From Oscillospiraceae bacterium (GTDB lineage: Bacteria > Bacillota > Clostridia > Oscillospirales > CAG-272), in assembly GCA_015064095.1 (NCBI GenBank), contig SVSW01000001.1, positions 64,709 through 128,708 of the forward strand: a DNA stretch of 64,000 nucleotides, read 5' to 3'. Under the pieces are notes generated by a model, which was given only the letters and a program-made list of their open reading frames with translations, did not search any database and had not been told where the DNA came from. Shown piece by piece: positions 34,569 to 55,832 of this stretch. The stretch's first letter is position 1; every line of letters begins with the position of its first letter. A program made the position numbers and the translations under genes.

Positions 34569-34609
34569 AAAAAAAGCACTCTCTCAACCGAGAGAGTGCC
34601 GTTTTTTTA
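34569..34609. terminator. bidirectional intrinsic terminator
   Basis: The hairpin GCACTCTCTC-aacc-GAGAGAGTGC has an A-run and a T-run, and sits between convergent genes. Confidence 0.7.
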
Positions 34610-36901
34610 TTTTAGTTCAACTCGGCGGATCTTTCCGCTGATGGTCTTCGGAAGCTCATCGCGGAATTCAACGACGCGTGGGTATTTATACGGCGCCGTG
34701 CGCTTTTTGACATATGTTTGTATCTCGCGCTTCAGCTCCTCTGTCGGGTTTGTTCCCTTGACAAGCACGATCGTCGCCTTAACCGCCTGACCGCGTATCT
34801 CATCGGGCACTGCTGTGACCGCACACTCAAGCACGTACGGAAGCTCCATAATAACGCTCTCGATCTCGAACGGTCCTATGCGATAGCCCGACGATTTGAT
34901 AACGTCGTCCACGCGCCCGACAAACCAAAAGAGCCCTTCCTCGTCGCGCCATGCGGTGTCGCCCGTATGATAATATCCGTCGTGCCACGATTCCTTTGTG
35001 TGCTCCTCGTCGCGGTAATATCCGCTGTAAAGTCCGCAGGGTGCGCCCTCGGTCGTCTTTATGCAGATCTCACCTGGCTCGCCGACCTTGGCGGGAGTGC
35101 CGTCGGGAAGCAGGATCTCAACATTATAAAGCGGCGAGGGTCTGCCCATCGAGCCGAGCTTCGGCGTTGTGCCGACGAAGTTTCCGATCGACAGAGTGGT
35201 CTCCGTCTGACCGTACGCCTCCATAATGCGGATCCCCGTTGCCTTCAAGAACTGATTGTACACCTCGGGGTTCAGCGCCTCGCCTGCCGTCGTGGCGTAC
35301 TTTATCGACGAAAGATCGTAATCGGCGAGATTTTCCTTTATAAAGAAGCGGTACATAGTCGGCGGTGCGCAGAATGTGGTTATGCGGTATTTACCGATCA
35401 TCGGAAGTATATCTGCGGCAATGAACTTATCAAAATCGTACGTGAACACGGGTGCTTCGCAGAGCCACTGACCGTAGAGCTTGCCCCAAAGCGCTTTGCC
35501 CCAGCCCGTATCGGAGATCGTAAAGTGCAGACCGTTCGGGTCGACATTGTGCCAATATTTTGCGGTGACAAAATGTCCGAGCGGATATTTATGATTGTGC
35601 AGAGCGATCTTCGGATAACCCGTTGTTCCCGATGTGAAGAACATGAGAAGCGGATCGCTGCCCTTGGGCGATTCCTCCGTTCGCTCGAACTTATCGGAGA
35701 ACTGTGCGTACTCGTCGTCAAAGCTATGCCAGCCCTCGCGCTTGCCGTGTGCTATAACCTTGAGCATAGAGCCCTCGGGCAGCTTTGCGATCGCCTTTTC
35801 GGCCTCTGCCGAGGTTTCGCCGTCAGCTGTGCAAACGATAGCCGATACGCCTGCCGCTTTGAAGCGGTAATCAAAATCCTTTTCCATAAGCAGATTGGTC
35901 GCAGGTATCGCGATCGCGCCGAGCTTATGCAAGGCAAGGATTGTGTACCAGAAATGCCAATGGCGCTTTAAGACGAGCATAACACGGTCGCCCTTTTTGA
36001 CGCCGAGCGACGCAAGATAATTCGCGACCTTGTTCGAGCCGCGCGACATATCCTCAAACGTAAAGCGGCGCTCGTGCTTTTTTGCCGAGACGTGGAACAT
36101 TGCAAGCTTGTGAGGCGTCTTTTTAGCGACCGCGTCAACAACGTCGAACGCGAAATTGAAGCTTTCCTCATTCTTAAAGGATATACCCGAAAGCACTCCG
36201 CGCTCGTCATGCTCGGTGTCGATAAACCTCGAGCTGACTGGATTTATAATGCCTGCAAGGTCCGTATTCGTGGTTGCGGGAAGTGCCTCCTGCTCCTCAT
36301 ATTTTGACGCACGCTCGCCGTCGGGATTCATAACGATGGCATAGATCTCGCAATCCTCGCCGCCCATTGCTGCCTCGTCGTGAGGTGTTGAGCTGTCATA
36401 ATAGATGCTGTCGCCTGCGCGCAAGATCTCTGCGCGGTCGCCGATCCAGATCTTCATAGTTCCCCGAATAACTATATCAAGCTCCTGACCCTTATGGGAT
36501 GCAAGATGCAGAGGCTTTTCGAGCGCCGCTTCGTCGTATGGGATCTTTACATAAAAGGGCTCTGCTATCTTATCCTTGAACATCGCGGCAAGTCGGTTAT
36601 ACACAAAGCCCTCGCGTCGCACGATCGGCATACCCTCGCCTGCGCGAGTGACCGTATAGTTCGTCAAAAACGGCGAGCGTCCCTCCATCAGGTCGGTGAT
36701 CTCAACACCCGATGCATTTGCGACCTTATATATAAAAGTAAAGCTGAAATCTGCCTGACCGTTCTCGTTAATTATGTACTCCTGCTCCGAAATGCCGCAG
36801 GCTTCCGCCATTGCCGCCGTTGAAAGTCCCACAGACTCTCGCGCGGCGCGGATACGTTGGGCAACCTCCTTTATCTTGAAATCCACATGGTTCCCTGACA
36901 T
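34607..36901 (-). CDS. fusion protein: XRE-type HTH + cupin + AMP-forming acyl-CoA synthetase, copy 2 (paralog of 4557..6827)
   Basis: ORF 34607..36982 is trimmed to MSGNHVDFKIKE (ATG 36899-36901), which has an AAGGAAG RBS. It has the same three-module layout and adenylation motifs as copy 1 (FFTSGTTGYPK, YHTGD, SSGYRIGPFEIE, SGKIRR). By eye the identity to copy 1 across the enzyme part is high. Confidence 0.85.
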   Translation of the reverse strand: MSGNHVDFKIKEVAQRIRAARESVGLSTAAMAEACGISEQEYIINENGQADFSFTFIYKVANASGVEITDLMEGRSPFLTNYTVTRAGEGMPIVRREGFVYNRLAAMFKDKIAEPFYVKIPYDEAALEKPLHLASHKGQELDIVIRGTMKIWIGDRAEILRAGDSIYYDSSTPHDEAAMGGEDCEIYAIVMNPDGERASKYEEQEALPATTNTDLAGIINPVSSRFIDTEHDERGVLSGISFKNEESFNFAFDVVDAVAKKTPHKLAMFHVSAKKHERRFTFEDMSRGSNKVANYLASLGVKKGDRVMLVLKRHWHFWYTILALHKLGAIAIPATNLLMEKDFDYRFKAAGVSAIVCTADGETSAEAEKAIAKLPEGSMLKVIAHGKREGWHSFDDEYAQFSDKFERTEESPKGSDPLLMFFTSGTTGYPKIALHNHKYPLGHFVTAKYWHNVDPNGLHFTISDTGWGKALWGKLYGQWLCEAPVFTYDFDKFIAADILPMIGKYRITTFCAPPTMYRFFIKENLADYDLSSIKYATTAGEALNPEVYNQFLKATGIRIMEAYGQTETTLSIGNFVGTTPKLGSMGRPSPLYNVEILLPDGTPAKVGEPGEICIKTTEGAPCGLYSGYYRDEEHTKESWHDGYYHTGDTAWRDEEGLFWFVGRVDDVIKSSGYRIGPFEIESVIMELPYVLECAVTAVPDEIRGQAVKATIVLVKGTNPTEELKREIQTYVKKRTAPYKYPRVVEFRDELPKTISGKIRRVELK

Positions 36902-37170
36902 AAAATCACTTCCTTCTTGAAAAATAAAAAACGCCTCACTGGGTCTTTGCCCATTGAGACGAAAAAATTTCCGCGGTACCACTCAAATTGCGCTATGCGC
37001 CACTTACGGATTCTGACAAATCCTGCGCCTCTAACGCTGCGCCTGCGTGCCGTCCTCATCGGACAACCGACTCCAAAGTGATGGCTTCTCGGTCTTTTGC
37101 CGCCGGCTCTCAGCCCCCCGGCTCTCTGTGCGCAAAATCAATCGAAAGCGTCTTTTTCATAGTCTTTAAT
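36902..37170 (-). promoter_or_regulatory. T-box riboswitch leader (probable Ile/AUC specifier) with intrinsic terminator
   Basis: Read on the minus strand, the leader contains, in order:
- K-turn AGAC-UAU-GA-AAAAG / CUUUG-GA-GUCGG
- AG bulge AGAGA and distal loop GGGGCUGAGAG
- F-box-like GCGUUA
- T-box core AAUUUGAGUGGUACCGCGG (36971-36989)
- terminator CGUCUCAaUGGG/CCCAgUGAGgCG-U6 (36925-36962). Confidence 0.8.
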
Positions 37171-37176
37171 GTGTGG

Positions 37177-37205
37177 ATTATACCACCGCCCGATATTTTT
37201 GTCAA
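37177..37205 (-). promoter_or_regulatory. sigma-A-type promoter for the second T-box leader
   Basis: The minus strand reads TTGACA (37200-37205), a 17-nt spacer, then TATAAT (37177-37182). Confidence 0.6.
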
Positions 37206-53635: not shown

Positions 53636-54430
53636 ATGATCGAAGATATTTTTGACAAGGAAGATCTCCGGCGGCTCGCAAAAGCCTCGGCGACTAAAAT
53701 AAAATGGGCAAAGCGAGCCGGAAAAAAGCTCGTGCGCGAGGCAACGGACTGCATTGAATGTGCAGGGGAAAAGCTTTCGGACGTAAAACGCAAGGTCGAA
53801 GCCGAGATCCGCGAGGACATCGCCGCCGTGCGCCAACGCGACCCCGCTGCAAAAAGCAATATTGAAATTCTGCTGCTCTACTCGGGAGTTCATGCAATTT
53901 TGGCTTACCGTGTGGCACATAAGCTCTATGTTTCGGATCACTATTTCTCCGCACGCTGCTTGAGCCAAATAGCCCGCGCCGCAACGGGGATCGAGATCCA
54001 CCCCGGCGCAACTATCGGGCATGACTTTTTCATCGACCACGGCATGGGTGTCGTTATCGGTGAGACCACCGAGATCGGTGACGGCTGCACGATCTACCAG
54101 GGCGTAACTCTCGGCGGTACGGGAAAAGATACCGGAAAGCGCCACCCAACACTCGGCAACAACGTCATGGTCGGAGCGGGCGCAAAGGTGCTCGGCCCCG
54201 TTAAGATCGGGGATAACTCAAAGATCGCCGCAGGCGCTGTCGTGCTTCGGGAGATACCCGATGACAGCACTGCCGTCGGTATTCCCGCAAAGGTCGTTCG
54301 CCGCAGCGGCGCGCGCCCCGAGGAGCTTGACCAGATCCATATTCCCGACCCCGTTGCACGCGAGCTTTGCGAGCTGACGCGTAAGCTCGGCGAGCTTGAA
54401 GATAAAATAAAATCCTTGGAGAACAAATAA
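53636..54430 (+). CDS. cysE: serine O-acetyltransferase
   Basis: The 264-aa ORF has the hexapeptide-repeat core GIEIHPGATIGHDFFIDHGMGVVIGETTEIGDGCTIYQGVTLGG. Confidence 0.85.
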   Translation: MIEDIFDKEDLRRLAKASATKIKWAKRAGKKLVREATDCIECAGEKLSDVKRKVEAEIREDIAAVRQRDPAAKSNIEILLLYSGVHAILAYRVAHKLYVSDHYFSARCLSQIARAATGIEIHPGATIGHDFFIDHGMGVVIGETTEIGDGCTIYQGVTLGGTGKDTGKRHPTLGNNVMVGAGAKVLGPVKIGDNSKIAAGAVVLREIPDDSTAVGIPAKVVRRSGARPEELDQIHIPDPVARELCELTRKLGELEDKIKSLENK

Positions 54431-54431
54431 A

Positions 54432-55832
54432 ATGCTTATATACAATTCACTGACCAGAAAAAGAGAAGAATTCAAACCGCACGAGGAAGGCACCGTCAAG
54501 ATGTATACCTGCGGTCCGACCGTTTATCACTTCGCGCACATCGGAAACCTGCGTTCATATCTTATGGAGGACGTGCTTGAGCGCTATCTGCGTTATTCGG
54601 GCTACGCCGTCACTCGCGTTATGAACATCACCGACGTCGGACATCTGACAAGCGATGCCGACGAGGGCGAGGACAAAATGCTAAAAGGTGCCAAGCGCGA
54701 GAAAAAGACCGTTATGGAGATCGCAAAATTCTACACCGACGCGTTTTTTGCAGACTGCGCAAAGCTCAATATAAACACCCCCGATATCGTTCAGCCGGCG
54801 ACAGGCTGCATTGACGATTTCATTCGCGTTATAGAGGGTCTTATCGAAAAGGGCTACGCTTATATTGCGGGCGGAAACGTCTATTTTGACACCTCAAAGC
54901 TCGATAAATACTACGTTTTCAACGATTTTCGCGAAGAAGACCTTGAGGTCGGAGTGCGCGAGGGCGTTGAGGGCGACGAAAACAAGAAAAACAAAGCCGA
55001 TTTCGTGCTTTGGTTCACTCGCTCGAAATTCGACGATCAGGAGCTTAAATGGGACAGCCCTTGGGGCGTAGGATATCCCGGCTGGCATATCGAGTGCTCC
55101 TGCATCTCGATGAAATATCTCGGTGAATATCTTGACATACACTGCGGCGGTATCGACAACGCATTCCCCCACCACACAAACGAGATCGCACAGTCCGAGG
55201 CATATGTGGGGCACGAGTGGTGTCCTTACTGGTTCCACGTACATCACCTTAATACGACAAGCGGAAAGATGAGCAAATCTACGGGCGAATTTCTGACCGT
55301 TTCCCTGCTTGAAGAAAAGGGCTACGACCCTCTTATTTACCGCTTCTTCTGCATGCAGTCGCATTACAGAAAATCCCTCGTTTTCTCTTACGAGGGACTG
55401 GACAACGCTCGCGTAGCGTACGGCAAGCTCGTCAACCGCATAGCGGCACTCAAAAACGAGGGCGAGATCGACGAAGCCGCAGCAGCCGAGCTTCGCGCAA
55501 AATTTAAATCGGCTCTTGATAACGATCTTAATACATCGCTTGCGGTCACGGCATATTACGACGTTCTGAAAGCACAGACGAACGATAAAACGAAGCTTTC
55601 GGTGCTCGAAGAATTTGAAACCGTGCTTGCGCTCGGACTTCTTGACGCCGCGAAAAAGCAGAGCGAAGAAAAGGTTGAGGGTGACCCCTATATCCTCGAT
55701 ATGATCGCACAGCGTGCAGCTGCCAAAAAGGCGAAAAATTATGCGGAGGCAGACCGTATCAGAAACGAGCTTGCCGCGCAGGGCATAACCTTGATAGATA
55801 CGCCTCAGGGCACAAAATACACGAAAGAATAA
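54432..55832 (+). CDS. cysS: cysteine--tRNA ligase
   Basis: The 466-aa ORF has the HIGH-type motif HFAHIGN and the KMSKS motif. Confidence 0.9.
   Translation: MLIYNSLTRKREEFKPHEEGTVKMYTCGPTVYHFAHIGNLRSYLMEDVLERYLRYSGYAVTRVMNITDVGHLTSDADEGEDKMLKGAKREKKTVMEIAKFYTDAFFADCAKLNINTPDIVQPATGCIDDFIRVIEGLIEKGYAYIAGGNVYFDTSKLDKYYVFNDFREEDLEVGVREGVEGDENKKNKADFVLWFTRSKFDDQELKWDSPWGVGYPGWHIECSCISMKYLGEYLDIHCGGIDNAFPHHTNEIAQSEAYVGHEWCPYWFHVHHLNTTSGKMSKSTGEFLTVSLLEEKGYDPLIYRFFCMQSHYRKSLVFSYEGLDNARVAYGKLVNRIAALKNEGEIDEAAAAELRAKFKSALDNDLNTSLAVTAYYDVLKAQTNDKTKLSVLEEFETVLALGLLDAAKKQSEEKVEGDPYILDMIAQRAAAKKAKNYAEADRIRNELAAQGITLIDTPQGTKYTKE

Follow-up and report, generated by a model that had tools for sequence, protein, structure and literature searches.

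The stretch of DNA analysed here (the window) comprises 64,000 nucleotides (nt) of contig SVSW01000001.1 from an Oscillospiraceae bacterium and carries two paralogous genes for a fusion of a helix-turn-helix (HTH)-cupin module with an acyl-coenzyme A (acyl-CoA) synthetase, each preceded by a T-box leader. All features of the two loci described below lie on the minus strand. This report deals mainly with copy 2, whose coding sequence (34607..36901, 764 amino acids) starts at the ATG at 36901, behind the ribosome-binding site (RBS) AAGGAAG (36915-36909); a longer, GTG-started open reading frame (ORF), which runs into the leader, was rejected as the true start. Pfam recognizes an XRE-type HTH (residues ~13-74), a Cupin_2 domain (~133-189), an AMP-binding domain (256-629, E = 9e-61) and an AMP-binding_C domain (679-757, E = 4e-22), and the catalytic ANL motifs TSGTTGYPK, YGQTE, YHTGD and GRxDD, together with the lysine of the C-terminal SGKIRR, are intact. 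In the N-terminal part (residues 1-200, window 36302-36901), the cupin pattern His-x3-Glu ... His is invariant in 12 diverse family members; the corresponding H136, E140 and H174 of copy 2 form a possible metal site, reminiscent of the metal triad in HppE and other cupin enzymes. Behind the gene lies a terminator (34569..34600, GGCACUCUCUC-GGUU-GAGAGAGUGC plus U7), and since the next gene is convergent, the copy 2 unit is monocistronic. The fusion is abundant, with >8000 database proteins at E < 1e-30, and the best 120 of these nearly all have the same domains; they come from Oscillospiraceae, Ruminococcus, Lachnospiraceae and related metagenome-assembled genomes, and the only name that the databases give them is "AMP-binding protein".

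Upstream of the gene stands a sigma-70-type promoter (37177..37205), with TTGACA at 37205-37200, a 17-nt spacer and TATAAT at 37182-37177; both hexamers match the consensus at all 12 positions and a TG extension is found at 37185-37184. Transcription from this strong promoter would start near 37170 and give a leader of ~270 nt. The T-box itself (36952..37169) aligns with positions 1-219 of the Rfam model RF00230, that is, with its full length (84.5 bits, E = 7e-17 over the whole window). Stem I (37069..37164) consists of a base helix, a kink-turn (K-turn), the specifier loop, an AG bulge and a distal hairpin. The base helix GAC/GUC is followed by the K-turn UAUGAA/GGA and the helix AAAG/CUUU, the two strands being GAC-UAUGAA-AAAG (37164-37152) and CUUU-GGA-GUC (37078-37069). 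The specifier loop is compact, with AC on its 5' side and C-AUC-A on its 3' side, and is capped by the helix GCUU/AAGC; the Rfam alignment identifies AUC (37080..37082, Ile) as the specifier codon, with A next to it at 37079. Further up, the AG bulge AGAGA (37127-37123), near-invariant across 46 aligned related leaders, leads into the distal hairpin GCCGG-GGGGCUGAGAG-CCGGC. Folding of Stem I as a single sequence was uninformative (z = +0.5), as expected for such a motif-rich stem. Stem II is the short hairpin GUUGUCC-GAUGA-GGACGGC (37049..37068), and the F-box GCGUUA of the Stem IIA/B region was placed at 37032..37037 by the Rfam alignment. The T-box core and antiterminator (36955..36991) contain UGAG (36985-36982), the 7-nt bulge UGGUACC (36981-36975), the helix A2 (GCGGAA/UUCGU) and CUCA. 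The intrinsic terminator (36920..36961) is the hairpin CGUCUCA.UGGG-CAAAGA-CCCA.UGAGGCG with the tail UUUUUUAUUUUU (U6AU5); its folding energy is -18.2 kcal/mol (z = -4.1), which none of 200 shuffled sequences equalled. Because CGUCUCA is common to the terminator and the antiterminator, these two structures are mutually exclusive. Both tRNA-Ile and tRNA-Val have A as the discriminator base, which fits the UGGU of the bulge. Such an anatomy, matching RF00230 end to end, is far beyond chance.

Copy 1 (4557..6827, 756 amino acids) has the same domain layout, is 60% identical to copy 2 and has its own T-box leader (6869..7087, 105.8 bits against RF00230) with the specifier GUC at 6999-6997, followed by G. 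The 22-nt T-box core GCAAUUUGAGUGGUACCGCGGA at 36991-36970 is identical in copy 1 at 6907-6886, and the two leaders align without gaps over 41 nt each, in a stretch that opens with the 3' strand of the distal helix and reaches GAGUCGG. An earlier reading of these letters, referred to here as the original prediction, had named the promoter, the two K-turn strands, the AGAGA bulge with its distal loop, the GCGUUA F-box, the shared 22-nt core, the U6 terminator and the gapless alignment, and each of them was found where it had been placed. The same holds for its proposal that the helices of the two leaders keep pairing through different sequences, since the helix that reads GCUU/AAGC in copy 2 and GGUC/GGCU in copy 1 covaries in the 46 related leaders, and for its placing of AUC-A at the position where copy 1 has GUC-G: the covariance model puts both triplets at the specifier, so that the two copies differ in this codon and share no specifier for an amino acid outside the branched-chain group. 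On the plus strand, the 3' end of copy 1 is overlapped by a weak match to the Rfam family BSnc120 (4495-4574; 34.6 bits, gathering score 114, E 2e-4), which is most likely due to chance.

In its general plan, the copy 2 leader resembles the T-boxes of the transcriptional class, such as those of Bacillus tyrS, ileS and ilv-leu, with which it shares the K-turn, the specifier in a side loop, the AG bulge and distal loop, the F-box, Stem III, the 7-nt UGGNACC antiterminator bulge and a competing terminator with a U-tract. It differs from them in its target, which is an acyl-CoA synthetase fusion and not a tRNA ligase, a biosynthetic operon or a transporter. The family of leaders to which it belongs also departs from this class in Stem I, where a Watson-Crick helix replaces the S-turn and the specifier loop has 2 nt on its 5' side and 5 nt on its 3' side. 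In T-boxes generally, an S-turn is found above the specifier and a purine usually follows the codon (PMC7583486).

Specifier codons in related leaders

Homologous loci, 80 from reference genomes and 80 from metagenomes, were fetched, and about 120 related leaders were carried into a comparison of the specifiers. The T-box core TGGTACCGCG was present within 450 nt 5' of the gene in 66 of the 80 genome loci. When the leaders were anchored on the 3' strand of the K-turn helix, a codon with one nucleotide on either side was seen to stand directly before that strand in every one of them. In the genome set this column contained ATC (45 leaders), GTA (17) and GTC (2), in the metagenome set ATC (34), GTA (19) and GTC (2), and no other codon occurred in either set. 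The bases flanking the column are variable, and GUA and GUC are synonymous; both observations agree with the behaviour expected of a specifier position.

The register of the loop was established by covariation. Since a MAFFT alignment did not match up the variable middle of Stem I by structure, RNAalifold detected no helix in it apart from the distal one, and an explicit structure was tested instead on the well-anchored columns. In the alignment of 46 leaders, four helices (the base, the K-turn-proximal one, the one above the specifier loop and the distal one) were paired in 92.8% of the cells, compared with 27-45% when the partner strand was slid by 1-3 columns; changes on both sides were found in 15 of the 17 pairs, and the observed covariation was reached in none of 500 shuffles. 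Since covarying helices lie on both sides of the loop, they fix its register, with 2 nt on the 5' side and 5 nt (N, codon, N) on the 3' side. The helix above the specifier, GCUU/AAGC in copy 2, is GGUC/GACC in most relatives, which represents UA-to-CG covariation. Among the relatives nearest to copy 2 (protein identity 77-91%), ATC-A is retained, the flanking helices and the short Stem II change in a compensatory manner, and the loop CGAUGAGG of Stem II is kept as well; this combination indicates that the copy 2 leader is under selection. In a relative that is 77% identical to copy 2 (L089, gene at 1501), TGGTTTAACGG at ~1400-1420 replaces the core TGGTACCGCGG, with Stem I and ATC kept, and the T-box bulge there may have degenerated or changed.

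The base after the specifier is A in copy 2 (37079) and fits the purine rule. Among the Ile-type leaders, however, it may be A, C, G or U, and after the Ile specifier it is C in about one third of the leaders; the rule is thus relaxed in this T-box subclass. In 112 of 116 family leaders, a refined heuristic (its first version stopped at T-runs inside the antiterminator loop) detected a terminator with a terminal U-tract whose hairpin takes up the 3' strand of the antiterminator helix A1. One family leader (L075) has, at ~2560-2910, an extra ~300 nt of GC-rich repeated hairpin units between the terminator and the gene start, which the other family leaders do not have.

The specifier tracks a residue of the acyl pocket

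In a neighbour-joining tree, the proteins with a Val specifier formed one clade and those with an Ile specifier filled the rest. Pocket positions were mapped through an alignment with E. coli Acs, in which Val310, Thr311, Val386 and Trp414 make up the acetate pocket, a picture that two papers cited below support in part. Only one position of the catalytic domain separated the two types perfectly. It corresponds to Gly468 of copy 2 (codon GGC, 35498..35500) and Ala455 of copy 1 (codon 5465-5463), lies in the motif DTGW-[G/A]-KA and aligns with Val310 of Acs, directly after the invariant D306, G308 and W309. With the genome and metagenome sets pooled and the two window copies held out, this residue is Gly in 73 of 73 Ile-type proteins and Ala in 39 of 39 Val-type ones, so the check proposed with the original prediction, whether the specifier codon co-varies with pocket residues in related genomes, had a positive outcome. 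The second-best catalytic discriminator, position 571, is S, T or A in the Ile type and I, V or M in the Val type; copy 2 has Ser571 there (codon TCG, 35189..35191, after YGQTETTL) and copy 1 has Ile558 (codon 5156-5154).

The pocket of both paralogs is of the enlarged kind. The WWQTE of Acs aligns with the YGQTE of copy 2, and in both copies the positions of Trp414 and Val386 are occupied by Gly and Ala, respectively; the difference between them is at position 310. Trp414 (Trp416 in Methanothermobacter thermautotrophicus Acs) is known to set the acyl range, with Gly in its place in medium-chain enzymes (PMC10455477), and in the M. thermautotrophicus enzyme the four pocket residues include Ile312, whose replacement is associated with a broader range, isobutyrate included (PMC3477478). 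With its offset of two residues, Ile312 is the equivalent of position 310 of E. coli Acs, the very position at which the Ile and Val types differ.

Two loci that seemed to combine ATC with Ala were examined and set aside. In one of them (L168), a tandem locus, the first gene is Gly-type; a truncated Val-type copy (~2860-3900) stands directly after its stop, starts in the middle of the protein without HTH-cupin or leader, and looks like the remnant of a tandem pair. The other (L143) has a mosaic make-up, part L169 and part Val-type gene: its identity to L169 is 99-100% through the leader and the initial ~1500 nt, falls to 61-91% in the catalytic core, where the Ala-type pocket lies, and then recovers to 99%; it is either a recombinant of Ile-type and Val-type paralogs or a chimeric assembly. 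Complete tandem pairs occur as well. In L097, L109 and L112, an ATC-led gene of the Gly type is followed by a second T-box with GTA and a paralog with the N-terminal markers of the Val clade, which makes the design of two paralogs with two specifiers a recurrent one. These second T-boxes lie ~100 nt 3' of the fusion gene (L097 2963-3208; L109 2936-3172; L112 2737-2983); a further GTA T-box (2959-3203) stands behind the Val-type gene of L120. Such pairs, together with AUC and Gly in copy 2 and GUC and Ala in copy 1, agree with the earlier claim that the two paralogs of the window are tuned to different branched-chain amino acids.

Copy 1 is overall equidistant from the Ile-type and Val-type proteins and falls outside the main Val clade, so that it either acquired the Val-type character independently or branched off early within the Val type. 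Yet it is Val-type at both discriminating catalytic positions, 468 and 571, so the link from leader to pocket holds beyond the main clade. Its N-terminal domain is mixed, with the Ile-type residue at positions 59, 96, 99, 111 and 116 and a Val-like one at 45, 52 and 72. The HTH-cupin contains many residues that discriminate between the types, and the idea that they reflect the ligand specificity of the cupin was mostly set aside, because copy 1 is Ile-type at the best-separating positions of this domain; these positions look mainly like clade markers.

Proposed mechanism and substrate

We consider it probable that the copy 2 leader is a tRNA-Ile-specific, transcription-attenuating T-box controlling one gene, that of an HTH-cupin/short branched-chain acyl-CoA synthetase which serves the salvage of 2-methylbutyrate for isoleucine, as the original prediction had it. 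Stem I would present AUC (37082-37080) to the GAU anticodon of tRNA-Ile, and the AG bulge and distal loop would dock the tRNA elbow. The free 3' NCCA end of uncharged tRNA would then pair with the UGGU of the bulge (36981-36978), hold the antiterminator (36985-36955) and permit read-through; with charged tRNA, the terminator (36961-36920) would form. The enzyme would convert 2-methylbutyrate, ATP and CoA to 2-methylbutyryl-CoA, which a 2-oxoacid:ferredoxin oxidoreductase and a transaminase, both presumably encoded elsewhere, would turn into isoleucine, the branched acid being salvaged when the charging of tRNA-Ile falls. Copy 1 would do the same for isobutyrate and valine under its GUC (Val) T-box. 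For anaerobes it is established that a ferredoxin oxidoreductase reductively carboxylates the acyl-CoA to the 2-oxo acid, which is then transaminated. The use of branched-chain volatile fatty acids for the synthesis of isoleucine and leucine has been described in gut anaerobes (PMC10658910).

Three considerations suggest 2-methylbutyrate as the substrate. First, among characterised enzymes the nearest is MacS of Methanosarcina acetivorans (PDB 3ETC), the best PDB match of copy 2 (E 1e-194 over the whole catalytic domain); its preferred substrate is 2-methylbutyrate, with which both steps of the reaction are completed (PMC10455477), and MacS is likewise Gly-type, with Gly at the positions of both Acs Trp414 and Acs Val310 (GWGK) and the alternate Trp (KYW) conserved; unlike copy 2, it lacks the HTH-cupin N-terminal module and, being archaeal, has no T-box. 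Second, the side chain in the Ile-type pocket is one methyl smaller than in the Val-type pocket, and 2-methylbutyrate exceeds isobutyrate by one carbon, so that the larger pocket (Gly) would accommodate the C5 acid and the smaller one (Ala) the C4 acid. Third, T-boxes control the supply of the cognate amino acid. These points also bear on the idea that the Ile T-box serves another acid, either propionate, which would enter the normal isoleucine pathway via propionyl-CoA and 2-oxobutyrate, or some other small acid. Propionate-to-isoleucine routes are known in anaerobes, which counts for this idea. It also draws on the finding that MacS adenylates C3-C8 acids (PMC10455477), but an Ile-type pocket that is larger than the Val-type one is the reverse of what would be expected for a C3 against a C4 acid, and the Gly-type MacS completes the full reaction with 2-methylbutyrate; we regard the use of propionate or another small acid as quite unlikely.

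Several observations weigh against the assignment of copy 2 to 2-methylbutyrate salvage under tRNA-Ile control, and they are considered here with the alternatives on which they bear. The first group concerns the leader. Its 84.5 bits are below the Rfam gathering score of 93, so that a default Rfam scan returns copy 1 alone; the distal loop GGGGCUGAGAG is 2 nt below the family norm; the S-turn (AGUA/GAA, loop E) is absent above the specifier, where the Watson-Crick helix GCUU/AAGC is found instead; and Stem II is short and has no S-turn (GAA/AGUA), whereas that of copy 1 has the usual GAA...AGUA. The low score, the truncated Stem II and the shortened distal loop would be understandable if the leader were a decaying T-box, blind to tRNA and constitutively terminated or read through. 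However, a low score is a trait of the whole family: of 20 family leaders tested, 16 were below the gathering score and 4 reached it, all being full-length (E ≤ 3e-12), and in another batch it was reached by 2 of 7. Moreover, close relatives keep ATC, the loop of the short Stem II and both switch helices with compensatory changes, and in copy 2 itself the T-box core is intact and the terminator strong. Decay is therefore extremely improbable. Most family leaders score 67-92 bits against RF00230 (20 metagenome loci of the L094-L130 subset, and L010, L038, L043, L056 and L075). The gathering score is too strict for this T-box subclass, most members of which routine annotation would miss; the absent S-turn, the relaxed base after the specifier and the short Stem II are probably the cause of the low scores.

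The second group concerns the evolutionary and metabolic setting. No leader with a Leu specifier was found among the ~120, which leaves the picture of three acids for three amino acids incomplete, and the association of Gly and Ala with the specifiers goes back to few independent evolutionary events, namely the main Val clade and the copy 1 lineage. No 2-oxoacid:ferredoxin oxidoreductase, ilv, transaminase or branched-chain amino acid transport gene was seen among the 20 larger ORFs of the window that were scanned, so the route to isoleucine has no support from gene context, and a search for pathway partners in the neighbourhoods of homologs revealed no such oxidoreductase, ilv or transaminase gene and nothing conserved, the neighbours differing between lineages. 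The best NCBIfam model for both paralogs is that of Staphylococcus aureus MbcS (NF047394); copy 2 scores 432.4 bits and copy 1 448.4 bits against it, about half of its equivalog cutoff of 850 bits, which implies that the window proteins are not MbcS orthologs. MbcS activates 2-methylbutyrate and isobutyrate for branched-chain fatty acids (PMC10026030, PMC11167679); its product goes into lipids, and neither a T-box nor a fusion to an HTH-cupin module has been reported for it. By analogy, the same Ile T-box and the same chemistry could provide acyl-CoA mainly as a primer for anteiso branched-chain fatty acids, low charging of tRNA-Ile signalling a short supply of Ile-derived primers. The rank of MbcS among the NCBIfam models and the lack of amino-acid pathway genes linked to the locus speak for such a role. 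Yet 92% of T-boxes precede genes for tRNA ligases, biosynthesis or transport (PMC2494555), and copy 2 is far under the MbcS cutoff, so a primarily lipid-directed function seems unlikely. The two uses are not exclusive, as the same acyl-CoA may feed both.

Finally, salvage of 2-methylbutyrate leaves the role of the conserved HTH-cupin module unexplained. The same two-domain layout is found in regulators that combine an XRE-HTH with a cupin (PuuR, PDB 1Y9Q) and in HppE, with an HTH-like domain and a cupin; the similarity, over the N-terminal ~200 residues, is weak (E about 1e-3), the His/Glu/His pattern of the cupin is shared, and in the window protein the module is fused to an enzyme. The protein might accordingly be mainly a transcription factor whose HTH-cupin regulates other genes, with the synthetase acting as a ligand sensor with little flux. 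The family-wide conservation of the HTH and cupin residues, including the possible H136/E140/H174 metal site, and the weak similarity to the HTH_3 and cupin regulators 1Y9Q and PuuR are in line with this. But all catalytic ANL motifs are intact, and the pocket varies in step with the specifier, as selection on catalysis would lead one to expect; a mainly regulatory protein with little flux is very improbable. A combination of enzyme and regulator, for which BirA provides an analogy, is a somewhat better candidate, though still a doubtful one: the synthetase would make branched acyl-adenylate or acyl-CoA, and the HTH-cupin would sense a pathway metabolite and bind DNA, either at the unlinked genes for reductive carboxylation or transamination or, in a Ruminococcus clade whose fusion gene has no T-box, at its own promoter. 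One locus would then join tRNA sensing by RNA with substrate sensing by protein, the specifier labelling the specificity and Gly/Ala serving as a one-residue code for the enzymes with which gut and rumen Clostridia take up branched-chain volatile fatty acids into metabolism.

The fusion family and the T-box regulon

The T-box-less branch of the family is a Ruminococcus clade (L004, L005, L011, L012, L013, L026 and L049) with a Gly-type pocket. Its leaders (~200 nt 5' of the gene, at ~2800-3000 of the full-flank loci) have a strong TTGACA/TATAAT promoter followed by a conserved (T)ATGTAAGC, a hairpin and the RBS GAAAGGAG.AGGCTT; the ATGTAAGC element may represent another type of control, perhaps an operator bound by the HTH of the fusion protein itself. 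In two of these loci (L012 5621-5940; L049 5714-5870), a cluster of tRNA genes (Val-UAC, Asp, Phe, Gly) lies directly 3' of the fusion gene, and its tRNA-Val(UAC) matches GUA, the specifier preferred by the Val-type leaders. Elsewhere in the family, a canonical second T-box (128.9 bits) was found on the opposite strand downstream of the fusion gene of L023 (6985-7231, minus strand). In the window itself, a serine acetyltransferase-like gene followed by a cysteinyl-tRNA synthetase gene (53636-55832, plus strand) showed no detectable T-box even at E ≤ 1e-3; this pair is often T-box controlled in Firmicutes.

The mechanism described here is a known one; what is new is the CoA ligase as a member of the T-box regulon, along with some peculiarities of Stem I. 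Many cellulolytic and other Clostridia of gut or rumen require branched-chain volatile fatty acids ("isoacids") or profit from them, and labelling work established long ago that isoacids are carboxylated to branched-chain amino acids. Literature searches revealed no gene that had been assigned to the isoacid-activating enzyme in these bacteria, and no paper that links T-boxes to acyl-CoA synthetases or describes the HTH-cupin fusion, although a prior description elsewhere is possible. CoA enzymes go unmentioned in two surveys of the T-box regulon (one of them PMC2494555).

In this family, the specifier codon offers an independent read-out of the amino acid served by each paralog, and it matches a single pocket residue in more than 100 proteins. 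For a large unnamed family, with thousands of database entries, this yields a testable assignment as two CoA ligases, one for 2-methylbutyrate and one for isobutyrate, with a single residue predicted to switch between them. T-box regulons, which otherwise consist almost entirely of tRNA ligases, biosynthetic genes and transporters, gain a CoA ligase, and with it a whole T-box subclass that sits under the Rfam gathering score. For the gut and rumen Clostridia, these leaders and their genes would provide a handle on the genes that assimilate branched-chain volatile fatty acids.

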